Program-made: the position numbers and the translations under genes
Shown: positions 13,812 to 35,846 of the stretch, one piece after another
How positions within the stretch are numbered: position 1 is the stretch's first letter
Layout: each line of letters opens with the position of its first letter
The notes under the pieces: model-generated
Seen by the model: only the letters and a program-made list of their open reading frames with translations
What the model was told of the DNA's origin: nothing
The model's database searches: none
NCBI RefSeq assembly: GCF_056712565.1
Contig: NZ_CM160072.1
Length of the DNA: 64,000 nt
Reading direction: 5' to 3' (one strand)

Positions 13812-14675
13812 ATGATCCGCAGTATGACCGCCTACGCCCGGCGTGAAATCAAGGGTGAATGGGGGAGCGCAACCTGGGAAATGCGCTCGGTAAACCAGCG
13901 TTATCTGGAAACTTACTTTCGTCTGCCGGAGCAGTTCCGTAGCCTTGAACCTGTCGTTCGCGAGCGTATTCGTTCTCGCCTGACGCGCGGTAAAGTGGAA
14001 TGTACCCTGCGCTATGAGCCAGATGTTAGCGCGCAAGGTGAGCTGATCCTCAACGAAAAACTGGCTAAACAGCTGGTAACTGCCGCGAACTGGGTAAAAA
14101 TGCAGAGCGACGAAGGAGAAATCAACCCGGTTGATATTCTACGCTGGCCGGGCGTGATGGCAGCCCAGGAGCAAGATCTCGACGCGATTGCAGCTGAAAT
14201 TCTCGCGGCGTTGGATGGCACCCTGGATGACTTTATCATCGCGCGCGAAACCGAAGGTCAGGCGCTGAAAGTGTTGATTGAGCAGCGTCTGGAAGGCGTC
14301 ACCGCCGAAGTGGTCAAAGTCCGCGCCCATATGCCGGAAATCCTGCAATGGCAGCGTGAGCGTCTGGTAGCGAAGCTGGAAGATGCTCAGGTGCAACTGG
14401 AAAACAACCGTCTGGAGCAGGAGTTGGTTCTGCTGGCACAACGAATTGACGTTGCCGAAGAACTGGACCGCCTCGAAGCGCATGTCAAAGAGACCTACAA
14501 CATTCTGAAGAAAAAAGAAGCGGTTGGCCGTCGTCTGGACTTTATGATGCAGGAGTTCAACCGCGAGTCGAACACTCTTGCTTCGAAATCTATCAATGCC
14601 GAAGTGACGAATTCTGCCATCGAGCTGAAAGTGTTGATTGAGCAGATGCGCGAGCAGATCCAGAATATCGAATAA
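13812..14675 (+). CDS. yicC: YicC-family protein (UPF0701; YicC/YloC-type endoribonuclease family)
   Basis: 287-aa ORF MIRSMTAYARREIKGEWGSATWEMRSVNQRYLETYFRLPEQFR..., recognised as YicC. Confidence 0.85.
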   Translation: MIRSMTAYARREIKGEWGSATWEMRSVNQRYLETYFRLPEQFRSLEPVVRERIRSRLTRGKVECTLRYEPDVSAQGELILNEKLAKQLVTAANWVKMQSDEGEINPVDILRWPGVMAAQEQDLDAIAAEILAALDGTLDDFIIARETEGQALKVLIEQRLEGVTAEVVKVRAHMPEILQWQRERLVAKLEDAQVQLENNRLEQELVLLAQRIDVAEELDRLEAHVKETYNILKKKEAVGRRLDFMMQEFNRESNTLASKSINAEVTNSAIELKVLIEQMREQIQNIE

Positions 14676-14782: not shown

Positions 14783-14806
14783 CGTGTACATAGAGGTGTA
14801 CATAAT
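14783..14806. repeat. left boundary repeat of integrative element (putative attL or integrase arm-type sites): cgtgtacatagaggtgtacataat
   Basis: Matches 34696..34719 at 22 of 24 positions in direct orientation; contains two 12-bp units with a TGTACA palindromic core; additional degenerate copies at 14814..14836. Confidence 0.6.
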
Positions 14807-14863
14807 GACTTTCATGTACATTGCTTTATGTACACACCCATATTCGATATTCAGGTATTCGCA

Positions 14864-20810: not shown

Positions 20811-21113
20811 ATGAAGAAGATTAAATTTACTGGCTTAAATGCCAGCGGACAGACTCACCCGAAAATCAGGATCGGGGATATTTTCCGGGATAAATATGGT
20901 GACAGCGTGGTTATTAATTCCGTGTATGAACGGCACATTACATACCGCCGCGCAGGGTACGACTATGACTGTGTGATGCCCGTTCATCAGTTCCGGCGTG
21001 ATTTTTCACTGGTATGTGCAGTACCACGCAGTAAGCCCACCAGTAAAGAGAAAGCACGGGCAAATATTCAGGTAATAAAGAACATGATTAACGCATTCAG
21101 GGGCAAGAAATGA
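20811..21113 (+). CDS. hypothetical protein (100 aa)
   Basis: ORF tightly packed between 85-aa ORF and replication gene (overlap ATGA at 21110). Confidence 0.45.
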   Translation: MKKIKFTGLNASGQTHPKIRIGDIFRDKYGDSVVINSVYERHITYRRAGYDYDCVMPVHQFRRDFSLVCAVPRSKPTSKEKARANIQVIKNMINAFRGKK

Positions 21114-23236
21114 AACGCGCACCGAATTTAAAGCACCAGCCGAAAGACAAAATGACGGAGGTGATTATCTTTGCGGGTAGTGATGCCTGGGCACATGCGA
21201 AAGAGTGGAGCGAATGGGCCGGAAAGCATATTGCGGCAGATGATACACATCCAGTTATTCTTGGACCGGAACAACTGGCGAGTCTGGCAGACACGCAAAT
21301 CATCGACAAAGGGCGCTATTACGTGCGCGTTTATCGTGCTGGTGAAATATCAGAGCAGCACCTTACACAGATAGCGACACTGCTTGCAGTGGCGGGTGTG
21401 AAGGAGGCGCGTTGCTACCGCAGCTTTGTTGATCAGCAGCCGGAGGACTGGACACCGCGCATGGCTGGACTGAAGGATGATGCGGAACGCGGTAACAGTC
21501 TGGTGATCAACCTTCCGGCGAAGACAAATTTCACCGGAAATTATGATGACGAATTAAAGCCTCGTGTTGAAAGTCGCGTCGATGGTGTTTTCTGGGTAAC
21601 GCCCAAAGTGGACAAGCAGTCAGGCGAAATTATCCGGCCTGAGACGTGGTTATGTTCTCCGCTTGAACTACTGGGAACAGGAACAATCGGCAAAGAGCAT
21701 TACCGCGTGATGCGCTGGAAAAAACCAGCAAACCATGAGGTCATTACAATGGCGGTCCCGTGCGGAGGCATTGGTGACCGTGACGGCTGGCGGTTGCTGA
21801 AAGACCACGGCCTTAACGTGACGACCAACGGCAAATACAGGGCTATCCTGGCTGACTGGATGCAGTTAAGCGGAAACCATGAGGAATGGCAGTTAAGCAC
21901 AACAACGGGGTGGCATTTTGGTGCGTACATCATGCCGGATGGTTCGGTCATTGGTGAATCAGAGAAACCCATCCTGTTTACCGGAAAAACTGCCGCTGTT
22001 AATGGCTATTCCGTGGCGGGAACAGCGGAGGGCTGGCGCGATACCGTGGCACGGCTGGCTGGTGGTAATCCGTCCATGATGCTGGGTGTGGCGGTATCGC
22101 TATCCGCACCATTAATCGGGCTGGTGGGTGCTGACGGCTTCGGGGTTCATCTTTTTGAGCAATCATCAGCAGGTAAAACCACCACACAGAACATTGCATC
22201 AAGTTTATGGGGAGAGCCGGACGCGCAACGGCTGACCTGGTACGGAACGGCGTTAGGTATCGCCAACGAGGCCGAAGCACATAATGACGGGCTGTTACCC
22301 CTGGATGAAATAGGCCAGGCCGGAAACGCGCGGGAGGTGTCCACGTCAGCCTATACGCTGTTTAACGGTTCCGGGAAATTACAGGGGGCGAAGGACGGCG
22401 GCAACAGGGAGATAAAACACTGGCGCACGGTGGCAATCAGCACCGGAGAAATGGACGTTGAAACATTCCTCAAAACGGAAGGGATAAAAATTAAAGCGGG
22501 GCAGCTTGTCCGTCTGCTTAACGTGCCGATGGAAAAGGCATCGCAGTTTCACGAATACAGCACCGGAAAGGCGCACGCAGACGCGTTAAAAGATGCCTGG
22601 ACAGAAAATCACGGGGCGGCAGGTCGTGAGTGGGTTAAATGGCTGGCAGGTCACCAGCAGGAGGCAAAGGACGCGGTAAGGGCATGTCGCGAGCGGTGGC
22701 GCAACCTGATACCGGAGAGCTACGGCGAGCAGGTTCACCGTGTGGGGGAAAGATTCGCCGTACTGGAGGCCGCGCTTGTGCTTTCCGGTCATGTTACAGG
22801 CTGGGATGTTCAGGCGTGCCGTGATGCAGTTCAGCATAACTTTAATGCCTGGGTGAAGGAATTCGGCACGGGCAACAGGGAATTTAAACAGATGGTTGAA
22901 CAGGCTGAGGCGTTTTTGTCGTCGTTCGGGTTCAGTCGATACCTTCCCTATCCAAACAGCGACGAGCGTGATTTACCGATTAAAGACCTTGCCGGATACA
23001 GAAAGGGGAGTATCAGAAACGAAGATGACGAGTTCCGTTTTTACACGTTCCCGCATGTGTTTGAGGGTGAGATAGCACAGGGATTTAATCCGTCTCACTT
23101 TGCCCGCGCGTTGAGTGCTGCCGGAATGCTGGAAGCGGGAGGCGACCGCCGTTACAAGAAAAAGGCGCTCGGCAGGATTGGCGGGAAGCAGCATATTTTT
23201 TACGTGCTGATGTTCCAGCCTGAAGCAGAAGATTAA
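21110..23236 (+). CDS. putative replication initiator: primase/helicase-like protein with P-loop motif (possibly DUF927-type)
   Basis: 708-aa ORF; P-loop-like FEQSSAGKTTTQ; followed immediately by iteron-like repeats and ssb. Confidence 0.55.
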   Translation: MKRAPNLKHQPKDKMTEVIIFAGSDAWAHAKEWSEWAGKHIAADDTHPVILGPEQLASLADTQIIDKGRYYVRVYRAGEISEQHLTQIATLLAVAGVKEARCYRSFVDQQPEDWTPRMAGLKDDAERGNSLVINLPAKTNFTGNYDDELKPRVESRVDGVFWVTPKVDKQSGEIIRPETWLCSPLELLGTGTIGKEHYRVMRWKKPANHEVITMAVPCGGIGDRDGWRLLKDHGLNVTTNGKYRAILADWMQLSGNHEEWQLSTTTGWHFGAYIMPDGSVIGESEKPILFTGKTAAVNGYSVAGTAEGWRDTVARLAGGNPSMMLGVAVSLSAPLIGLVGADGFGVHLFEQSSAGKTTTQNIASSLWGEPDAQRLTWYGTALGIANEAEAHNDGLLPLDEIGQAGNAREVSTSAYTLFNGSGKLQGAKDGGNREIKHWRTVAISTGEMDVETFLKTEGIKIKAGQLVRLLNVPMEKASQFHEYSTGKAHADALKDAWTENHGAAGREWVKWLAGHQQEAKDAVRACRERWRNLIPESYGEQVHRVGERFAVLEAALVLSGHVTGWDVQACRDAVQHNFNAWVKEFGTGNREFKQMVEQAEAFLSSFGFSRYLPYPNSDERDLPIKDLAGYRKGSIRNEDDEFRFYTFPHVFEGEIAQGFNPSHFARALSAAGMLEAGGDRRYKKKALGRIGGKQHIFYVLMFQPEAED

Positions 23237-23260: not shown

Positions 23261-23383
23261 GCGGGTTATGCGGGTTATCCTGTGCATAAGTTAATTAACT
23301 GCATGATTAAAAAGGAAATCAATAACCCGCACGTAACCCGCAAAACGGCAGTTATAACCCGCAAATGTGCGATTGTAACCCGC
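23261..23383. repeat. iteron-like cluster 1: two direct GCGGGTTAT copies (23261..23278) plus four inverted (A/G)TAACCCGC copies (23322..23383); candidate origin
   Basis: Read directly from sequence; between the replication protein gene and ssb. Confidence 0.7.
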
Positions 23384-24800: not shown

Positions 24801-25166
24801 CTAAAACCCTGTACCGAAGAGCGGCGGCGCGATGGGGTGAAGTAATGCAGTTGGGAAACTGATAAGGAACGGTATTACATATCAATGCGACGACTGGAAT
24901 GTTCCAGGAAGGCACAGAGGCCACCGAAGCAACCGGATAATTTAGAAGACCTGAAACGGTCGCTTAAACGCACTGAAAAAGAAATGGGGATAGATGGGAT
25001 CGGGAAATCAGTATGGCGTAACTACCAGAAGTAAGCACAGAGCCGGAGCAATCCGGCTTTTTTTGGGGCTGAAATCAATCAATCTGTTTTTGTGATAGAA
25101 ATATGTTTATCTACCACTTTTTCAGATCAATAATGTGCATAGTTTAGTCAGTAAGAGGAAATTGCT

Positions 25167-25469: not shown

Positions 25470-28001
25470 ATGCCAGTCGTACCAACAGTATCCGGACGTC
25501 AGGTTGAGAGCCGTGGAGTTCAGTCAGCAGGCTTGCAGACGTTTTCTCAGCCAGGTATTAGTGATGCTTTTGTTCGTGCAGGAGCAGAGGCAATTGATGT
25601 TCTGGGTCAGGCAAAACAGCGTGCCAATATTGCCTTGGTTCAGGAGGCATCCCTTAAACTCAGTCAGACAGGCAGTGATCTGCTGAATAATCCTGAAACA
25701 GGATTGCTTAACCTGAAAGGGAAAAATGCTATTGGAAAAGGCCATGAGTATACGCAGCAGTTTGATGCTCAGGTCGAACAACTGGCTATGTCGCTGCCGG
25801 ATGAACAGGCCCGTAATGCTTTCATGCAGCAGGCACAGCAGCAGCGCATTCAGTTCACTACGCAGGCCGGGCGGTACGAGATCGGGCAAATAAATGCCTA
25901 CGAAGAAGGCCAGTTTCAGGCTACGCTGCTGAACAATGGTAAAAATGCCGCAGCATTGTATGGCGACAACGCCGCATACGTATTGGCTAATAAGCAAACT
26001 TTCCAGCAAATTGAGGAGTACGGCATTGCGCATGGCTGGAGCGACGAGCAGATTCGGGCCAGGAAAATCGAGTTTAAAGAAGCAACAGCAAAAGCAACTG
26101 CTCAAAATGCTATTGGAGCAAACTATCTTCAGGTAAGACAGCAAAACGGCGAGTTAAGCGATACTGCTGCTGGAGCTCGCCGTGCTGTAGCAGATAGTGG
26201 ATCTTCCGATCGTACCCGCGGTATACGCAACAATAACCCCGGCAATCTTGAATACAGCAAAACTAATCCGTGGGTTGGGCAGACTGGTGATGATGGTCGC
26301 TTTGCTAAATTCGAAACACCTGAACACGGTATTCGTGCATTAGGGCGGAACCTGATGTCGTATCAGCGGCAGGGTATTGATACCGTCAGCGAGATAATTA
26401 ATCGCTGGGCACCGCCTACTGATAAAAATGACACTATGTCGTATATCAAAGCAGTGTGCGAACAACTTGGCGTTTCTGCTGATGATCCTATAGATGCATC
26501 TAATCCGGATACCCTGAAGGCGCTTTGTGCAGCCATTATCCATCATGAAAACGGTAGCCAGCCATACAGTGATCAGCAGTTAACTGCAGGTGTTAGTGCT
26601 GCGCTGGGGCTTTCTCAGCTACCGACAAAAAATAAACGTTATACCGGTGTAGCCTGGTTCGATGCTTTAAGTGAATCGGATCAGGCCAGCGTGTTGCGAC
26701 AGACTGATGCACTAGCCAGACAACAGCAGGCTGAATATAAAACGATGCTCGACAGCCAGGTTCGCGATGCGACAGCTGCGTATATGCGTGGCGTTGAATT
26801 TCCTAACCCACCAGGTGAGGCTGATTTTATTGCAGCTTATGGCGTCAGAGAAGGAAACCTGCGATATACCGAGTTCAGAAATACGCAGATCGCCGGACAG
26901 TATATAGGCTCTTTCCGCAACATGCCGACAAGCAGCATTACCGCATATGTTGAGCAATTGCGCCCGGATACTGGTGAAACAGGGGAGGGGTATGCGTCTC
27001 GTGCGAAGTTATTCGACCGGGTATCGGCGGCAGCCACGAAGGTAATAACCCAGAGGCAGAATAATCCGTTTAGTGCAGCGGTGGAAATCGGAGCCTATAA
27101 GCCGATCACCAGCAACAACCCTGACGACATCACTGCCGAGGTGGCTAACCGTTTCTCGTCGCAGGAAAGCTTACGCGCGTTGGGAATTAATGCCCCAATC
27201 CTCAACAGTGAAGAGGCGGCTGCGCTGGCACAGCAGGTGCGCGGCACTCAAAACGTTGACCAGACAATTAAACTGTTGCAGAGCATGGGGGAAAAGCTAC
27301 CTGCGCCAGCAATACGGCAGGTGGCATCTGTAATTGCTCCGAACAGTGCAGCAACAGCCTATTCTGCGCTGCTGCTGGGCACGCCGGATAATCAGTACGA
27401 TAACACCAGGCCGTCGATCCCATATAGTCAGTTCATCGGGTATAAGCCGACGATGAACAAGTACGACGTTGCAAAGGTTATTCTTTCCGGTGACCAACTA
27501 CTGAATCCGACGAAGGCTATGAAGAATGCGGGCATAACTCCGGTACAGTTGCCGAGCGAAGATAAAATGAAGCGCGCTTTCGACGAACAGGTTGGTAATG
27601 CATTTGCCCGTAACCCAGAGACGCGCCAGATCAGTTATAGCCTTTTCAAAGCCGCTTACGCAGGAATCGCTTATCAGTCTGGTAATGCGTCTATGACGAG
27701 CACAGATGCGGTTAACTCCGATGTGGCGGAGAAAGCTGCGCAGTACGCAACAGGCGGTGTATACAAGAGATTTAATGGTGGTGATGTTGTAATGCCTTTC
27801 GGCATGGATGAATCCACTTTCAAAGATCGCTATACCACATCAGCGAAACAAGCACTGAAAGATGCCGGACTTAACGTAAATGCAGTGTCAAACTTCACAC
27901 CAGTTAATATCGGCAATAACCGGTATCGGCTGGTAAATGGTAGCGGACGCTGGGCAACAGATCCCAGAACCAATGAAGCTATTGTCGTGAGGGTTGAATA
28001 A
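25470..28001 (+). CDS. large hypothetical protein A (843 aa), Q/A-rich, with conserved central segment GIRNNNPGNLEYSKTNPWVGQ...WAPPTDKNDT...HHENG
   Basis: Strong SD (aggagg) 8 nt upstream of ATG; stop overlaps next start (TAATG). Composition resembles phage internal virion / ejection or polyvalent proteins; no family confidently assigned. Confidence 0.6.
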   Translation: MPVVPTVSGRQVESRGVQSAGLQTFSQPGISDAFVRAGAEAIDVLGQAKQRANIALVQEASLKLSQTGSDLLNNPETGLLNLKGKNAIGKGHEYTQQFDAQVEQLAMSLPDEQARNAFMQQAQQQRIQFTTQAGRYEIGQINAYEEGQFQATLLNNGKNAAALYGDNAAYVLANKQTFQQIEEYGIAHGWSDEQIRARKIEFKEATAKATAQNAIGANYLQVRQQNGELSDTAAGARRAVADSGSSDRTRGIRNNNPGNLEYSKTNPWVGQTGDDGRFAKFETPEHGIRALGRNLMSYQRQGIDTVSEIINRWAPPTDKNDTMSYIKAVCEQLGVSADDPIDASNPDTLKALCAAIIHHENGSQPYSDQQLTAGVSAALGLSQLPTKNKRYTGVAWFDALSESDQASVLRQTDALARQQQAEYKTMLDSQVRDATAAYMRGVEFPNPPGEADFIAAYGVREGNLRYTEFRNTQIAGQYIGSFRNMPTSSITAYVEQLRPDTGETGEGYASRAKLFDRVSAAATKVITQRQNNPFSAAVEIGAYKPITSNNPDDITAEVANRFSSQESLRALGINAPILNSEEAAALAQQVRGTQNVDQTIKLLQSMGEKLPAPAIRQVASVIAPNSAATAYSALLLGTPDNQYDNTRPSIPYSQFIGYKPTMNKYDVAKVILSGDQLLNPTKAMKNAGITPVQLPSEDKMKRAFDEQVGNAFARNPETRQISYSLFKAAYAGIAYQSGNASMTSTDAVNSDVAEKAAQYATGGVYKRFNGGDVVMPFGMDESTFKDRYTTSAKQALKDAGLNVNAVSNFTPVNIGNNRYRLVNGSGRWATDPRTNEAIVVRVE

Positions 28002-30061
28002 TGTCTGATGTTTTTTCTTTGGCTCCAGAAGGTCAGGCATGGATTGACGACAAAACAGTTGCCAACCCAGCAAGGCCAGAAGACTACGATCCGACTCCCT
28101 TCCAGGGTTCAGGTACTGCACTTTTGAGCGGCGTGGCGGAGGGGGCTCTCGGTCTCGCGCAGTCTGCCGTCGGATTCAGCAAGCGCCTGATTAGCGATCC
28201 GGCATTTACCGCAGACGTGGCACCGACTGTTAATATTTTTCGGGAGATGTTCCCTGATGCTGACAAAACACTGAATGATACATACGACACGATCGGAAAA
28301 CAGTTACAGGATGCCCGCAGCTATGTGAAGCCTGATGCAGGCAGTCAGGGAATGGCGGCTGAGGTATTAAATGAGCTTGGTAAATTTGTTCCTGCAATCG
28401 GAACAACTATGTTTGGCGGTCCCCTCATCGGCGCTGCTACAGCTTTCAGTTCTACGTATGAGCAGTCCTATCAGGATTTTAAAGGGAAGGGAGTAGACGA
28501 GGCTACGGCGCGTAACCTGGCAACGCAGCAAAGCCTTTTCAATGCTGTGGGTATGGCCTTACCCGCTGCCGTCGGCACCACACTGGCAACGCGCATTGCC
28601 TCAGGTGTGGCAATCAACACCGGATTCGGTGGACTGAACCGTTACTCTGTCGGCGCAACACTGGAGGAAAAAGGCTACACGGAGATGGCAAAACAGTACC
28701 GGGTATTTGACGGTCAGGCGATGTTAGTCGATGCCGTTTTAGGCGGGGTCTTTGGTGGCGTTCATCACCTGACTACCCATAATAACCATGATGGTACAGA
28801 GTCGAACATTTCTGCAGAAGAAATAAAATCAACTTTTGGTGAACATTATCAGCAATCTCCTGATGGTAACATTGAGTCAATGGTTCGTGATTTATCTGAT
28901 TCAGGAGTAATAGAACTTATTAATGAACCAGCAATAAAAAATAGTGATGGAGAAATACTTCTGAATAAAGGTCATGTGACAGTAGCTTCTGGAAAAGAAC
29001 CAATAATAAGAATAAATATTAATGGATTAAAAGATCATGAAGAACTGTTAGAAACCCTTCATCACGAGGCGCTTCATCTTGAGCAGCGCCATTACCCTGA
29101 CTGGAAGGCCAGAAAGCTAGCTAATGCTGTACTTAAATCTGCAAACAAGCATTCTGACTATCCTGAATTTGCATATGGGATGTCACAATATTATGAATAT
29201 AAGAAAAGGGGTGAGTACCCTGAAACATATCCTGAGTGGTTGTACGCTGAAGAAGTTGCCGCACATGCAGTAAATCCATCTCTAAAGACAAGCGTTTCAT
29301 CATGGGAAAAAATTATTTCAGGTTTTAAAGCCTATATATTCAGATACAGTGGTATTCAGGTTGGAACCGTTACACCTGAGCAGTTACGGTTACTCGTAAG
29401 TATGCGTCTTCGCAATATGAAACTGGAAGCCGCAGTCGAAAAAGTTTTTGGTATCCGGGCAAGGGAAAGAATAAAACCAAGCGATATTGATGCAGCCCAC
29501 ATTTTGAATGAGGGGCTTCATTACGATATTGAATCGTCACCAGTGCTTCACACCAGCAATGAGAGCATCAACAGCCATGTTGACGCCATGGATGAAGCAT
29601 ACAGGCAACTTAATGATGGTCAGCCTGTAAATGTTGGGGGGATGGCGCGAGGGCTTGATGGTCCATTGCGATCAGATATATCTGATACTTACCAAGAGCA
29701 ATACCATGAAATACAAAAGGTTTTTGAAGAAAATGGTGTCAGATATGAAACATCATCAGAGCCAATTAGTGAATCGCCTGTCCCTCGTGCTGAAAGTGCT
29801 TTCTCATCGGCTGGTGAACACAGAGGGGACGTCAGCGTTGATCCAGATACAGGGCAGGTTCTCTCATCCAACAGCTATGACCTTATGGCTGCCAGAGACA
29901 TGGCTGTTGCCAATCCTGAGCTGACTATAGCTCACCCGGAAACCGGAAACCCGACAAAACTTTCTGATCTCCTGGCTGAGTTGGATGAACAGATTAAGAC
30001 AGTCCAGAACGAATCGAAGGTTTATTCTGTAGCGGCAGCGTGCTTCTTGAGGAACCCATAA
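28001..30061 (+). CDS. large hypothetical protein B (686 aa) with glycine-zipper-like hydrophobic N-terminal region and HExxH zinc-metallopeptidase motif (LHHEALHLEQRH)
   Basis: Translationally coupled on both sides; HEALH motif encoded within a conspicuously AT-rich segment (about 28790..29350). Confidence 0.6.
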   Translation: MSDVFSLAPEGQAWIDDKTVANPARPEDYDPTPFQGSGTALLSGVAEGALGLAQSAVGFSKRLISDPAFTADVAPTVNIFREMFPDADKTLNDTYDTIGKQLQDARSYVKPDAGSQGMAAEVLNELGKFVPAIGTTMFGGPLIGAATAFSSTYEQSYQDFKGKGVDEATARNLATQQSLFNAVGMALPAAVGTTLATRIASGVAINTGFGGLNRYSVGATLEEKGYTEMAKQYRVFDGQAMLVDAVLGGVFGGVHHLTTHNNHDGTESNISAEEIKSTFGEHYQQSPDGNIESMVRDLSDSGVIELINEPAIKNSDGEILLNKGHVTVASGKEPIIRININGLKDHEELLETLHHEALHLEQRHYPDWKARKLANAVLKSANKHSDYPEFAYGMSQYYEYKKRGEYPETYPEWLYAEEVAAHAVNPSLKTSVSSWEKIISGFKAYIFRYSGIQVGTVTPEQLRLLVSMRLRNMKLEAAVEKVFGIRARERIKPSDIDAAHILNEGLHYDIESSPVLHTSNESINSHVDAMDEAYRQLNDGQPVNVGGMARGLDGPLRSDISDTYQEQYHEIQKVFEENGVRYETSSEPISESPVPRAESAFSSAGEHRGDVSVDPDTGQVLSSNSYDLMAARDMAVANPELTIAHPETGNPTKLSDLLAELDEQIKTVQNESKVYSVAAACFLRNP

Positions 30062-32817
30062 TGAAACAGGCATGTGTTGAAGCTATTGCGCAGACACTTG
30101 GTCGCCAGCCAAAGGCTGATGAGCTGAAAAATATCGAAGATCGTATCAAAGAAGCAGTGCAACATGTGCACAGAAAGAATGCAAAAGAAGGCAAAAGTGG
30201 TATTCCTGATGCTCAAACATACATGGATGCTGCAGAACTGGTACGCCAGCGTGTGGTTCATGATGTGTACAAGAAAAGACAGCGTGTTGCCCAGAATGCG
30301 ATCGCCATCAGTAAAATTACTGACACTCTCGATGCTAACATCCCGCCTGATCAGCAGACACCTGTTAATTTGCAGCAGTTTATTTTTGCTGGCCGACGAT
30401 CGAGAGACAAAGCTGATATCTCCGTTGCTTCTGCTGAAGAGCTTGCAATTGGGGCATATCAGGACTGGTCCCGTCAGCTCAGTGCTGAACTTCTAAAAGC
30501 AGGTGATGACGTCCGCAAATTCTTCGAGCAGAGCAGGGCGCTTGGAGAGCAGCGGTTTCGGAGTGTATTCGACAGGCAGGCGGCAAAGTCTGCACAACTC
30601 CAGATCCTGAAAGAAATTTATGGCGAAGATACCGGGAATCCCCTGGCGAAGAAAATTGCACAGATTTGGAAGGATGTAACAGGCCGTGTTCGTCATGAGA
30701 TGAACGACAACGGCTTTGACATAGGCCTGCGAGAAGACTGGCATACGCCATATGTGGATGATGCTGACCTTATTCGCAATGCCGGGCGCGAAGAATGGCT
30801 GGCATCGTTACCAGTGGCAGAGCAAGCTACAGCACGTCTTTCAGGTCGCCAGCCACCGATTGAGTTTGCCCGCCAGAAATGGGTTGATGACGCTTACAAC
30901 ACGCAGGATCGCAGCAATTACGTTAATCCTGACGGCAGCATTATGAATGACGTCGAGTACCGTCAGGCACTGGAAGCGATCTTTGAAACGAAGGCCACTG
31001 ATGGGGCAAACAAAATTGAGCCCGGTACATTTATGGGAGCCGGAGGAATAAAGAGCCGTGGTTCTCAGCACAGGGTGATGGCGTTCAAGGATGCGCAGTC
31101 ACACTTCGCCTATATGGAGCGATACACTCAGCAGCCGCTGGTGGGGGTGATGATGTCGCACCTGCAATCATCATCCAGGGATTTGGGCGTCGTTAAAGCC
31201 TTTGGTCCGGACGCCGAAAGAAACTTTTCCCTGGTACTGGATCGCATCTATAAGCGCGCAGTAACAGGCGGGAAACGCAAAAAAGAAATGGAGGATGAGG
31301 CCAAATTAGTAGCCCGTATGTTCAACTCAATGGCTGGCCTAAATGGTGTCGCTTCATCGAGTGTGTTCTCTTCAGCTGTTGGTGGTCTGCGTAACCTGAT
31401 GACCAGCGCCATGCTTGGCACCAGCGTACTGACAGCAACCAGCGACCAGGCAATTATGCGGGCAAATGCGCAGGCGCTGGGCTTTACCCGTGGTGGAATG
31501 CGGCTTTCCGTTAACACTATCAAAAACCTGTTTAGTGGAGATGCCAAAAAGGCGAATGCTGAACTCGGTCTGCTGGTGGATTCACATGCTGCTGTGGTTT
31601 CGAAAATGGGCGGGTTTGACTTGTCTCGCGGCATAACTGGCTGGTTCGCAGAGAAGACACTGAAGTGGTCCGGGCTGATCGCTATGGACCGCGCAAACAA
31701 AGCGTCGTTTGGTCTCCTGATGTACAAAAACATTGGCGAGCTGACCAGAAAATTTAAGACGCTGGACGATATGAAAGGAACCGATAAAACCATTCTGGCT
31801 AACAAGGGATGGAGCAATGAGGACTGGGCCATCATGGCAGCGGCAGAACTCAGGCCGATGACTACTGCCGGGCATATGGGGATGACGCCAGACGCGATTT
31901 ACGCTGTGCCCGATAACGTAATCGCCGACATTATGGCAGACCGTATTACCCGGATTCGTGCCGGGAGTGAAAAGGCACTGGCAGCACTTGGAGATCTCCC
32001 TCCAGAACGCCTGAAACGGATGAAAGAAGCATTCGACGCTGAGGCTGAGCAGACCATCACGCGCATGATTCGTAATGCACGCGCTGAAGCAGCCCATAAA
32101 TTGCTGGGAATTACGCACGGTGAGATGACCAATGCTGTGACCACCGCTACGGGTATTGATACATATGCCCGTGATGATGCTGGCGAGTTAATGAAGAGCT
32201 TCATGCTCTTCAAAACAACCCCATTTGCTGGATTTCGGCAACTTGTTAACAGAACACGGGATTTGGACACCGTTCCGGCCATTAAATTTCTGGCCTCATA
32301 TATCGGGGGAACAACTCTTGCTGGTATGTTTGCGATCCAGATGAACAGTTTGTTAAATGGTAATGATCCGCTGGATATGACAAAACCAACCACATGGGTT
32401 CAGGCTTTACTGAAAGGTGGTTCGTTCGGTATCTACGGTGATTTTATTTTCCAGGACCATACGCAATATGGCTCCAGCATCGGTGCCACTATGGGTGGCC
32501 CTGTGTTGAGCTTTGCAGAGCAGTTAACAAAATTACTGATTACTAACCCACAGAAGGCTCTACAGGGTGAAGAAACATCATTCGGTGCCGATGCACTGAA
32601 AACAGCCCGCATGATCACCCCATTCGCAAACCTGTGGTATGCGAAAGCGATAACCAATCACCTGATATTGCAACAACTTCAGGAGATGGCAAACCCTGGT
32701 TACAATGATCGAGTAAGGGACCGCGCGCAACGGGAGTTCGACATAACGAGTTGGTGGGAACCGGGTGCTATTGCGCCACGTAGAGCACCGGATTTTGGAA
32801 AGGCGGTAGGGGAATGA
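30061..32817 (+). CDS. large hypothetical protein C (about 918 aa)
   Basis: ATG at 30061 overlaps stop of protein B (TAATG); ORF track offers an upstream GTG at 30040. Stop overlaps start of the next small ORF (ATGA). Confidence 0.6.
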   Translation: MKQACVEAIAQTLGRQPKADELKNIEDRIKEAVQHVHRKNAKEGKSGIPDAQTYMDAAELVRQRVVHDVYKKRQRVAQNAIAISKITDTLDANIPPDQQTPVNLQQFIFAGRRSRDKADISVASAEELAIGAYQDWSRQLSAELLKAGDDVRKFFEQSRALGEQRFRSVFDRQAAKSAQLQILKEIYGEDTGNPLAKKIAQIWKDVTGRVRHEMNDNGFDIGLREDWHTPYVDDADLIRNAGREEWLASLPVAEQATARLSGRQPPIEFARQKWVDDAYNTQDRSNYVNPDGSIMNDVEYRQALEAIFETKATDGANKIEPGTFMGAGGIKSRGSQHRVMAFKDAQSHFAYMERYTQQPLVGVMMSHLQSSSRDLGVVKAFGPDAERNFSLVLDRIYKRAVTGGKRKKEMEDEAKLVARMFNSMAGLNGVASSSVFSSAVGGLRNLMTSAMLGTSVLTATSDQAIMRANAQALGFTRGGMRLSVNTIKNLFSGDAKKANAELGLLVDSHAAVVSKMGGFDLSRGITGWFAEKTLKWSGLIAMDRANKASFGLLMYKNIGELTRKFKTLDDMKGTDKTILANKGWSNEDWAIMAAAELRPMTTAGHMGMTPDAIYAVPDNVIADIMADRITRIRAGSEKALAALGDLPPERLKRMKEAFDAEAEQTITRMIRNARAEAAHKLLGITHGEMTNAVTTATGIDTYARDDAGELMKSFMLFKTTPFAGFRQLVNRTRDLDTVPAIKFLASYIGGTTLAGMFAIQMNSLLNGNDPLDMTKPTTWVQALLKGGSFGIYGDFIFQDHTQYGSSIGATMGGPVLSFAEQLTKLLITNPQKALQGEETSFGADALKTARMITPFANLWYAKAITNHLILQQLQEMANPGYNDRVRDRAQREFDITSWWEPGAIAPRRAPDFGKAVGE

Positions 32818-33155
32818 AAAAGTTAAATACACCAACCAAAAGAGTTGGGGGGCTTCTGATTGTCATTGGAATTATATTTATACTTGCATCTATAATAGAA
32901 ATATCAAGTAATGAGTTTGCTATTTCTGATAGTCCATATTATCGATCGCTAAATGCATATGATATTATTTTTATGTATTTAGAGCGAATTACAGATACTT
33001 TCATCATGACTCTAACATTTCAAACATGGAGTAGCCGTTTCAGTATATTAATGTTAGTAGGGTTTTGTTTATTTATTGTTGGTGTTCTTATTTCATATTT
33101 TTACGATGCTGGAATTGGCAGGGTTGTTAAGTGGATAAGAACGGGTAATTGGTGA
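32814..33155 (+). CDS. small hydrophobic protein (113 aa, two predicted TM segments), AT-rich gene
   Basis: Start ATG overlaps stop of protein C; hydrophobic stretches GLLIVIGIIFILASII and FSILMLVGFCLFIVGVLISYF; markedly lower GC than flanks. Confidence 0.5.
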   Translation: MKKLNTPTKRVGGLLIVIGIIFILASIIEISSNEFAISDSPYYRSLNAYDIIFMYLERITDTFIMTLTFQTWSSRFSILMLVGFCLFIVGVLISYFYDAGIGRVVKWIRTGNW

Positions 33156-33237
33156 TTATAAGCAAGCTATTGGTTTCATTGTTTATATCGTTGTCGGAAC
33201 TTTTTCAACTGACAGCAATCATAGCCGGGCTTGAATC

Positions 33238-33528
33238 GTGGTGGGGATTGCACTGGATAATTGCAGCCCCATTGCTTTCATCGTGAGCTATATTCCATTT
33301 GTTGGAGCGATTGTTGGTATGGTTGGCGCTATGGATGTATGGTGTTGGGAGTGGTGGCAGGCTGGCCTTCTATTCTTTGGTGGATCATCTTTGCTATTGT
33401 CAGCGGTGGAATGTCATCATTTTTCGAATGGCTATCATTCAGAAAAAGAGCGTGACATGTCACAGGCCGCTTTCGCGGCCTTGTTTTTAACGAATGCCAC
33501 CGCCGCCCGGGCGGGAATCCGCAGATAA
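33238..33528 (+). CDS. possible small membrane protein (96 aa); reading frame uncertain (three overlapping ORFs)
   Basis: Hydrophobic segments; alternative frames 33261..33455 and 33299..33490 also open. Confidence 0.3.
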   Translation: MVGIALDNCSPIAFIVSYIPFVGAIVGMVGAMDVWCWEWWQAGLLFFGGSSLLLSAVECHHFSNGYHSEKERDMSQAAFAALFLTNATAARAGIRR

Positions 33529-34156
33529 AAAAGCCCGCTGCACGGTTTTATTAATACTTATACCATTAGGATTGATCCTTCAATGGACAATCCTTCCATC
33601 GTGTGGCCAGCCATTCATATTCTTTGTCTTTTCTTCAGTACCGGCTTTGCATCTTCTACACCCTGAAAGATGTCGTTTTATGGTGTATCTGATGATTTAT
33701 TCCCTAACAATAGATATTCGAAAAATTAATCAGTTAAAACAATTATTTGGATAATTTCAGGTAAAAACTATCTTAATCTTCTGGTGGATCTCAATGCGCC
33801 GTGACGGTATCGGGATTAAGGGCGTGGATATTCGCGATATATGCCGCTACACCCCTCAACAGTAATAGATATGCGCTTTTCACGCTCTCCTTTCACTGCT
33901 GAGAACGGCAACAACGTGCCACAGGAACGCGCTGTAATCGATTCTGACGCACTTAATTGCGTTGGGTAATGGTTTGCCAGCCTGTGGGGGTAACTCTGTT
34001 TTATGAGGCTTTGGCTATAGTGCAAAAATGCACTTTGTCTTGCCTCTCAATTTGATGAGACTGGAACGACAACAGGACAGACCACCAGCAACAGTTACCG
34101 TATTCAGCCGTTCTGTGGCACCAGTGGAACTATCCACCCCTGCTTTCAGCAATGTG

Positions 34157-34311
34157 TTTGCGGGTTATTTTGGGGCGTTTGCGGGTTATTTGGGATGTTT
34201 TGCGGGTTATGCGATGCTTGAATAATGAACAGTGCATTTTGCAACATATTGATACTAAAGAACAAAAAATAGTTAGCACACTAAGATAACCCGGTAACCC
34301 GCATAACCCGC
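34157..34311. repeat. iteron-like cluster 2: three direct TTTGCGGGTTAT copies at 21-bp spacing (34157..34210) plus three contiguous inverted TAACCCG(C/G) copies (34286..34311)
   Basis: Read directly; same 9-mer as cluster 1, about 11 kb away near the right end of the element. Confidence 0.7.
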
Positions 34312-34695
34312 ACTGTTTTGTATATATATACGAAAAATTGCATTCAGGAGGGGGGATCGAAATCCCTACAACCCATTGCTTATGGGACCGCCGCCTCGTC
34401 AAATTTTTACACCCGCGAAATAAAAAATACTTCACGCTGGTGGGCATGATGCTGATATGAGAGGCTTCCATAACGCCACCATTCGAAACTATGCAAATCT
34501 GCATAGAAAAGGGGATGCCTGATACAATACCCTCGCCCGATAAAATCACACCGATAAACTCATCTGCCACGAGTAGAAAGAGCGAACGAACCCGATACGC
34601 AGTAATGCTGGTCGGGTCCAGCTTTTTAAGGCGGCTGTAGATATCAGGCCATCCGTGATCATCCACCAGCGTAATTGCTGAACGCTTTAAAAAAA

Positions 34696-34719
34696 CGTGT
34701 ACATAAGGGTGTACATAAT
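34696..34719. repeat. right boundary repeat of integrative element (putative attR or arm-type sites): cgtgtacataagggtgtacataat
   Basis: 22 of 24 identity with 14783..14806, direct orientation. Confidence 0.6.
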
Positions 34720-34960
34720 CAAAAACCGCATTAGAAAGAAACCAGATACAATGCGGCATTGAAGCCAACACTCTACAAACAGATCCAGAACATTGAATAA
34801 CTCGTAACGCCAATTCTTCCTTTTCAGCCTTCACAAATGCCGCCCACTCAAACAGAGCGGCATTTTTCCTCCCCGCAACATTCAATTCTGTTTTGCGTGC
34901 CTGCTCCAGATTTTGCGATGTTTTTTTGCCCAGCGCAGTGAGAACGTGAGATACTCACAA

Positions 34961-34976
34961 CTGTATATAAACACAG
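34961..34976 (+). promoter_or_regulatory. LexA (SOS) box of dinD: CTGTATATAAACACAG
   Basis: Matches CTGT-N8-ACAG consensus, 46 bp upstream of dinD start. Confidence 0.8.
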
Positions 34977-35021
34977 TTGTAAACTTACTTTCCTTGCAAT
35001 CGATATCATATGGAGTGGGCA

Positions 35022-35846
35022 ATGAACGAACATCATCAACCTTTTGAAGAAATACGGCATTATGGCACTGAAGGGCAAGAATTTTGGTCAGCGAGAGAAT
35101 TGGCACCGTTACTGGATTATCGGGACTGGCGCAATTTTCAAAAGGTACTGGCCCGCGCGACTCAAGCGTGCGAAGCCAGCAATCAAGCTGCATCTGACCA
35201 TTTCGTTGAAACCACCAAAATGGTTGTATTAGGTTCAGGGGCTCAACGAGAACTTGAAGATGTTCATCTCTCCCGCTATGCCTGTTACCTGGTAGTACAA
35301 AACGGCGACCCTGCGAAACCGGTTATTGCGGCAGGGCAAACTTATTTTGCTATCCAGACCCGACGGCAGGAGCTGGCTGACGATGAAGCTTTCAGGCAAC
35401 TTCGTGAAGACGAAAAGCGTCTTTTTCTGAGAAATGAGTTGAAAGAACATAACAAACAATTAGTTGAGGCAGCGCAGCAAGCTGGGGTAGCGACAGCTAT
35501 CGATTTCGCCATATTTCAGAATCATGGTTACCGGGGACTGTATGGTGGATTAGATCAGAAAGCCATCCATCAGCGGAAGGGGCTGAAAAAGAGTCAGAAG
35601 ATCCTGGATCATATGGGTTCAACAGAACTGGCGGCTAATCTCTTTCGAGCTACCCAAACAGAAGAAAAACTCAAGCGGGATGGCGTGAATTCAAAACAGC
35701 AAGCTAATACCACACACTTTGACGTGGGTCGCAAGGTGAGGCAAACCATTCAGGAACTTGGCGGAACCATGCCTGAGGAGTTGCCGACCCCGCAGGTCAG
35801 CATCAAGCAGTTGGAAAACAGTGTAAAAATTACAGAGAAGAAATAG
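35022..35846 (+). CDS. dinD: DNA damage-inducible protein D
   Basis: MNEHHQPFEEIRHYGTEGQEFWSARELAPLLDYRDWRNFQKVL... (274 aa), recognised as DinD; LexA box upstream. Confidence 0.85.
   Translation: MNEHHQPFEEIRHYGTEGQEFWSARELAPLLDYRDWRNFQKVLARATQACEASNQAASDHFVETTKMVVLGSGAQRELEDVHLSRYACYLVVQNGDPAKPVIAAGQTYFAIQTRRQELADDEAFRQLREDEKRLFLRNELKEHNKQLVEAAQQAGVATAIDFAIFQNHGYRGLYGGLDQKAIHQRKGLKKSQKILDHMGSTELAANLFRATQTEEKLKRDGVNSKQQANTTHFDVGRKVRQTIQELGGTMPEELPTPQVSIKQLENSVKITEKK

Follow-up and report, generated by a model that had tools for sequence, protein, structure and literature searches.

A gene-free block in an Escherichia coli PICI-family satellite is probably recombination-joint debris and spacer

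What is a gene-free stretch of about 600 bp doing inside a satellite that has no terminase of its own? The question is raised by positions 33529-34156 (the block) of the window, by which we mean the whole 64,000-nt stretch of DNA analysed. An earlier note had argued that such a satellite must carry a helper-recognised cos or pac site or encode a regulatory RNA, and had seen in the block a place for either. Our analysis leads to a different answer. We consider it probable that the block is debris from a recombination joint together with dispensable spacer, lying in the variable region of the satellite, and that it holds no dedicated cos, pac or RNA locus.

The window is the E. coli chromosome around rph-yicC-dinD-yicG-ligB, with 99.9% identity to the complete genome of ExPEC XM. 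The genes yicC and dinD are adjacent in K-12, and comparison with K-12 reveals that they are split here by an insertion of ~20.1 kb, on either side of which stands a repeat of the yicC 3' end, 21 bp long. Repeats of GTGTACAT lie within ~110 bp of the att cores at both ends of the island. They are probable arm-type binding sites of the integrase, and there is no copy within 33529-34156. The ends are arranged as follows.

14655-14675: attL core, 21-bp repeat of the yicC 3' end
14784-14835: stretch with GTGTACAT repeats at 14784 and 14796
34697-34717: stretch with GTGTACAT repeats at 34697 and 34709
34780-34800: attR core, 21-bp repeat of the yicC 3' end, partner of attL

Between these ends the island encodes a tyrosine integrase, HTH, Rha, AntA/B and BRO-N regulators, and Icd-like and DUF4222 proteins. 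The replication genes comprise a DUF927 primase-helicase (21110-23236), an ori and SSB, accompanied by ProQ/FinO and PerC, and three large and two small proteins are also encoded. There is no capsid, terminase, tail or lysis gene in the island, and no portal or HNH gene either. The replication module has 88% DNA identity to that of an O157 capsid-forming PICI (cf-PICI). Because of this relationship, together with the gene content lacking capsid and terminase, the island is classed from its sequence as a PICI-family satellite, as the earlier note had assumed. With cf-PICIs (EcCIEDL933; bioRxiv 10.1101/2022.09.08.507074) it has in common the DUF4222-DUF927-ori-SSB-PerC module, iterons of sequence GCGGGTTA and the phrog_1561 gene, which follows terL in the cf-PICIs. 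Unlike them, it lacks genes for capsid, portal, HNH and terminase proteins, and its cos resembles the phage version.

Copies of the island carrying both the cargo and the block, with 96-97% identity, are also found at a second att site, next to yqeG, in E. coli 2022E04-002 and FDAARGOS_1298 (L012 and L013). In these copies the homology to the window stops at 34671, and as judged from the alignments this position marks the boundary, or swap point, between the backbone and integrase-specific arm and att DNA. In ExPEC XM, as in each of the two yqeG-site copies, the annotation gives the PerC-family regulator gene (window ~24809-25034) a frameshift. A 145-bp insertion, 34461-34603, sets the window apart from all related right ends, and 34558-34628, which overlaps it, has 83% identity to part of rlfB/rapB of phage P1/P7. 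Elsewhere, a 10.8-kb circular 'non-mobilizable plasmid' (L018, the whole record NZ_CP148328.1) is a complete classical PICI, with genes for int, alpA, an icd-like protein, DUF4222, primase, a protease-capsid fusion, DUF1441 and phrog_1561; the assembly has probably captured a satellite after its excision.

The lack of genes in the block is real. It had been described as about 600 bp without a credible open reading frame and as the largest unexplained non-coding block of the island, and this account of its gene content is borne out. PGAP annotates nothing between 33528 and 34130 in ExPEC XM, no CDS gap in the 41-kb locus is larger than these ~600 bp, and in most other genomes the annotation under the region is 'none'. 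Iteron cluster 2 does lie beside the block, at 34157-34312. A run of 600 bp without an open reading frame is not improbable as sequence, and only the gene density of the genome makes it notable. PGAP also calls a 'hypothetical protein' of 251 aa with a TTG start at 34130-34885 on the minus strand, crossing the iterons, cos and attR into the core chromosome. The members of its cluster range from 168 to 251 aa, varying with the att context. This call is very likely spurious, and the gene-free right end therefore reaches attR, extending from ~33456/33529 to 34800, or ~1.27 kb.

When we searched 5,426 complete E. coli genomes with the block, its pieces proved to have different histories. At full length it is present in 44 of the 5,426, while ~690 genomes match parts of a 33880-34480 query, which spans block D, the iterons and cos. 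From left to right, the features of the block and its surroundings are these.

33464-33481, plus strand: intrinsic terminator hairpin at the end of the cargo operon, found in the terminator scan, just left of the block
33487-33525, minus strand: final 13 codons of the gene for a small secreted protein
33527-33625, minus strand: final 24 codons of a phage DUF4760 gene, interrupted by an in-frame stop, and the bases downstream of it
33626-33793: orphan AT-rich stretch, 168 bp, 32% GC
33794-33865, plus strand: remnant of phrog_1561, a 94-aa PICI/cf-PICI gene
33877-33912, minus strand: candidate inverted scrap of the 94-aa phrog_1561 gene
33917-33987: block D
34081-34156: block E, the lead-in to iteron cluster 2
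34157-34312: iteron cluster 2, an ori-type unit outside the block
34347-34432, plus strand: phiP27/SfV-type cos region

The left edge is of phage origin. The 76 bp at 33450-33525 have 97-100% identity to phiV10/TL-2011b-like podophages, in which they are annotated as 'terminator'. The tail of the small secreted-protein gene was found by tblastn, with 13 of 13 residues identical (SADSRPGGGGIR followed by the stop codon). Four relatives (L004, L012, L013 and L016) carry this gene intact together with an extra 195 bp, and relative to these the window has a 195-bp deletion at 33525/33527. Directly across the deletion point, 33527-33625 has 87% DNA identity to the 3' end of a prophage DUF4760 gene (L004 5999-6097). 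The translated match (tblastn E=7e-12) reads KEYEWLATRWKDCPLKDQS, an in-frame stop, and then WYKY. Variation among the three sequenced island copies is concentrated here, with 13 of the 32 variable sites lying in 33539-33579.

The AT-rich stretch that follows has no partial match in E. coli genomes, phages or plasmids outside its own island lineage, and no translated similarity to homologues of the neighbouring genes. The possibility that it is the rest of the DUF4760 gene was rejected, as there is no collinear similarity. Beyond it lies a 23-codon stub, MRRDGIGIKGVDIRDICRYTPQQ and a stop, of which 16 residues can be aligned with phrog_1561. This remnant has 84-88% DNA identity to two relatives (L005 4001-4051 and L007 932-982; tblastn E ~4e-5). 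In related islands phrog_1561 stands after terL in cf-PICIs or after the DUF1441 gene in classical PICIs, and no further gene separates it from the non-coding right end, as for example in the circular 10.8-kb PICI. A further segment, 33877-33912, is possibly an inverted scrap of the same gene, on the weak evidence of a 36-nt match to L008 1983-1948, inverted and 81% identical (E=6e-4). Altogether, ~210 of the 628 bp of the block are pseudogene remnants with significant similarity to intact genes elsewhere. Searched by blastn against phages and plasmids, the block gives matches at the gene remnants only, and motifs that it shares with the rest of the island (k >= 11) are at chance level.

The nature of the neighbouring cargo suggests how these pieces may have come together. 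At 25470-32817 lie three large proteins of 843, 686 and 918 aa, which match phrog_992, phrog_1145 and phrog_684, that is, virion or ejection-type proteins of epsilon15/phiV10-like podophages. The three proteins thus indicate that phage-derived cargo sits at the position of the morphogenesis and packaging genes of relatives. Virion-type cargo is unusual in a satellite without capsid genes.

We infer the following order of events at the joint. A cargo module from an epsilon15/phiV10-like podophage, consisting of the three virion/ejection-type proteins, two small membrane proteins and one terminator, would have been spliced into the satellite, and would now occupy the place held in relatives by morphogenesis or packaging genes. 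The splice would have brought with it the tails of two phage genes, those of the small secreted protein and DUF4760, and would have cut short the last gene of the satellite, the 94-aa phrog_1561. The dead fragments and the orphan AT-rich filler would then constitute 33529-33870, while 33871-34156 would be a poorly conserved backbone spacer leading into a putative functional right-end cassette. That cassette would comprise the second Rep-iteron unit (34157-34312), the phiP27/SfV-type cos (34347-34432), the integrase arm sites and attR. On such a scheme the block should be functionally dispensable. A mosaic joint of gene remnants and spacer is of a kind already well known in prophages and satellites, and in this respect the stretch is ordinary.

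The main challenge to this interpretation comes from the right half of the block, which leads into the iterons. The island has two iteron units built on the same iteron.

23261-23383: iteron cluster 1, just after the DUF927 gene, iteron GCGGGTTA
34157-34312: iteron cluster 2, with the same iteron

In cluster 2, TTTGCGGGTTAT is repeated three times in direct orientation, every 21 bp, and beyond an AT-rich spacer come three inverted copies. The two units are 11 kb apart, one beside rep and the other beside cos. A PICI/SaPI-type origin was sought in the block, and no iterons were found in 33529-34156; the structure is present at 34157-34312 and at 23261-23383. In the small islands of L006 type the C-terminus of Rep diverges and both clusters switch together from GCGGGTTA to TGTCCCA, which argues that cluster 2 is very probably bound by the island's own Rep. 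The units in L006 are as follows.

L006 1915-2055: iteron unit of TGTCCCA type
L006 4205-4330: iteron unit of TGTCCCA type

In the O157 cf-PICI (L011 2323-2640) two units stand in tandem directly after DUF927. The L006-type small islands contain, besides the two TGTCCCA clusters, a third iteron-AT-iteron structure just upstream of block D (L006 3700-3960, and also in L010 and L017), in which AAATGATCCCCC occurs twice and is followed by GGATCATTT twice. Phage P4 has two separated clusters, ori and crr, of the same repeats that bind its alpha protein. The two clusters of a single iteron in the island, 11 kb apart with one beside the primase-helicase gene, resemble this arrangement. The island protein is of the DUF927 type and not alpha, and a requirement for both sites could be proposed for the island by analogy with P4; unlike P4, the O157 cf-PICI has its two iteron units adjacent.

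Could the right half of the block (~33871-34156, with blocks D and E) then be a cis-acting accessory of the iterons and cos? It could, for instance, be a platform for a host or satellite protein that aids origin firing or couples replication to packaging. Several observations are in keeping with this. Small islands related to ours, found at narP/yejO and in E. albertii, have block D at their right ends with 82-84% identity. D contains a 19-nt invariant core, CGCGCTGTAATCGATTCTG, that includes the palindrome AATCGATT, and a small hairpin. Block E has 77-83% identity, with indels, to the satellites L007 and L008, so that elements of the right half are patchily kept (~80-84%) in satellites that otherwise diverge, where they lie about as far from the iterons. 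Moreover 34092-34121 is an imperfect inverted copy of 33917-33946, forming a 30-nt inverted repeat between D and E that brackets ~145 bp, and this pairing is seen both in folds and in translated matches. The z scores of the fold that this repeat produces, and a compensatory change in the hairpin of D (both given below), likewise fit some cis-acting role. Finally, 33877-34134 is free of substitutions among the three sequenced island copies, whereas other parts have ~2 per 100 bp.

The distribution among relatives nevertheless makes an accessory site unlikely. No relative has both elements, the L006-type islands having D alone and L007 and L008 having E alone. In L009 neither is present, and conservation is confined to ~20 nt before the iterons; the terL of this cf-PICI ends ~80 bp upstream of the first iteron. 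The O157 cf-PICI has its iteron unit directly behind unit 1, with no such lead-in. The lead-in regions of the relatives are mutually mosaic, and no recurring motif connects the block with other parts of the island; additional copies of the D half-site GCCACAGGAACG are no more numerous than expected by chance. The idea that the lead-in is the decayed 3' end of a duplicated rep gene was also tried and rejected, as tblastn with three DUF927 proteins gave no significant match.

A broader form of the same proposal is that D and E, the second Rep-iteron unit and the phage-type cos together make a portable cis-acting cassette that says 'replicate here, cut here'. This is decidedly unlikely. If it were true, satellites lacking a terminase would present freshly replicated cos DNA to the HNH, P27-family TerS and TerL proteins of a phiP27/SfV-like helper, and the block would be not debris but an indispensable accessory site for some protein or RNA.

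We regard it as very unlikely that the block encodes a small regulatory RNA, the second of the roles proposed for it. The candidate would be a plus-strand transcript running from the AT-rich stretch through block D to a hairpin at 34019-34034. The AT-rich segment has weak promoter-like hexamers upstream and the hairpin at 34019-34034 is terminator-like, yet a scan for promoters and terminators gave counts no higher than those in shuffled sequence, and both this hairpin and the AT-rich stretch are missing from all relatives. Within D there is a 9-bp hairpin in which pairing is kept through one compensatory change, and whose G-U pairs form on the plus strand only. However, its local z score of -1.4 to -1.9 is non-significant, and the covariation comes from the only two independent lineages available. 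When viral_contigs and 100k species genomes were scanned for exact 19-mers of block D, only the two known types and one unrelated high-GC chance match came up, so the scans provided no extra diversity for covariation. The 287-nt stretch that includes the D/E repeat folds with z scores of -2.8 (plus strand) and -3.9 (minus strand), and this long-range fold is absent from relatives. An Rfam 15 scan of 32500-35500 found no family; the best matches (E=0.5-9) were to CRISPR-repeat and Trp-leader models, far below gathering.

The premise that a satellite without a terminase needs a cos or pac site recognised by its helper holds to the extent that a cos-like sequence is indeed present in the non-coding right end of the island. 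Its proposed location does not hold, since the sequence is outside 33529-34156. It lies at 34347-34432, 190-275 bp past the block and beyond iteron cluster 2.

The right end was searched by blastn against 50,697 phage records, and the cos match covers 34347-34428. The region has 86% identity to the annotated cos region of phiP27, an Stx2e phage in which a 10-nt cos (CGCCCGCCCC) is annotated between the genes for an HNH endonuclease and a P27-family terS. The predicted equivalent of the cleavage site in the island is CGCCGCCTC at 34389-34397, which is one base shorter than that of phiP27 and has one substitution. It is followed by a terS-proximal flank of 25 nt, GTCAAATTTTTACACCCGCGAAAT, identical to that of phiP27. 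For SfI, a related phage, experiments have shown 10-nt ends, TGCCCGCCCC (PMC3636060). A G+C-rich motif of ~10 nt, NGCCCGCCCC, which was determined experimentally for SfI (PMC3636060), together with the conserved terS-proximal flank is encountered only outside the block, and the phiP27-type motif occurs only at 34389-34403. We conclude that 34347-34432 is the probable packaging site of the island, of phiP27/SfV-like type by sequence. Unlike phiP27, SfV and SfI, the island has no HNH, terS or terL gene.

It is extremely unlikely that the block itself holds the cos or pac site. The case for it was that the island has no terminase and needs helper packaging, and that no other unannotated stretch is as large as the block. 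Against this, the 50,697 phage records match the block at its gene remnants only, with no cos match, and the one phiP27-type motif and the cos homology lie at the positions given above. Other types of end were also sought. The sequence GGGCGGCGACCT, which we take to be the lambda-type cosN, has no match in the island beyond chance with up to 2 mismatches, and the same is true with up to 3 mismatches for GGCGAGGCGGGGAAAGCAC, presumably the 19-nt end of P2/P4.

Which phages, then, might package the island? The cf-PICIs have a cos of their own, between an HNH/small-ORF pair and terS, in which the terS side is GTGCACGGGA, as against ACACCCGCGA in the island. The terS-side flank of the island is therefore phage-like and unlike that of a cf-PICI, indicating phiP27/SfV-like helpers rather than a cf-PICI terminase. 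The notion that the island is a hyper-parasite using a cf-PICI terminase is weakened by this difference. We also considered a resident helper with the same cos. In the near-identical genome of ExPEC XM there is no second copy of the cos/iteron region, a single place matching 33880-34480. In another strain, ETEC4090 (L009 2436-3688), a cf-PICI terL is followed by an iteron unit and a degenerate cos-like sequence, and then by a 5'-truncated prophage terL, a portal gene and a gene for an HK97-type protease. This satellite seems to abut, or to lie within, the packaging module of a prophage.

The overall plan is that of the E. coli PICIs of EcCICFT073 type. In common with these, the island has its integrase first, a pri/rep gene, an iteron-AT-iteron ori, a cos in gene-free DNA near attR and a dependence on a helper terminase, and PICIs of this kind have as their last gene phrog_1561, of which the block holds a fragment. 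The EcCICFT073-type islands carry cos1 and cos2, with a lambda-like cosQ and cosN and a PICI-specific cosB (Fillol-Salom 2018, PMC6092414; 2019, PMC6739421), whereas the cos of our island is of phiP27/SfV type and not lambda-type. The island further differs in having no DUF1441-family protein and no capsid-redirecting genes, and its three large proteins of the PHROG 'head and packaging' class are phage-derived cargo. In contrast to the right end of EcCICFT073, the block studied here is probably debris beside cos, and not cos.

There remain four short open reading frames in or overlapping the block.

33494-33754, plus strand: 86 aa
33816-34025, minus strand: 69 aa
34028-34225, plus strand: 65 aa
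33841-33969, plus strand: 42 aa

Gene callers sometimes call ORFs of the block, the 65-aa one on 262 contigs, but almost certainly none of the four is a real small-protein gene, given that Pfam and PHROG searches with the 86-, 69- and 65-aa ORFs found no match, that the 86-aa ORF lies antisense over two gene remnants, that the 65-aa ORF crosses the iterons while its counterpart in L008 ends before them and the middle parts are frame-shifted, that there is no third-position bias (substitutions in block D fall ~3:3:4 over codon positions, evenly in all six frames, with no signature of purifying selection), and that all cluster members are E. coli 'hypothetical' proteins. Exact copies of the ORFs of the block are found only as 'hypothetical' gene calls in E. 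coli or in MAGs. A MAG in GenBank, 'Podoviridae sp. ctQuf7', holds ORFs identical to these spurious ones, so an island of this kind was apparently binned there as a podovirus.

The probable reading of the block as joint debris and spacer shifts attention to its neighbours. The second iteron unit, which covaries with the C-terminus of Rep and adjoins cos, is a better target for follow-up than the block. With cos placed and typed, the class of helper can be named, namely phages with an HNH protein and a P27-family TerS. The block itself illustrates how dead gene ends accumulate in the variable regions of satellites when cargo modules are swapped, and it carries the caution that a gene-free gap in a mobile element need not be a functional site.
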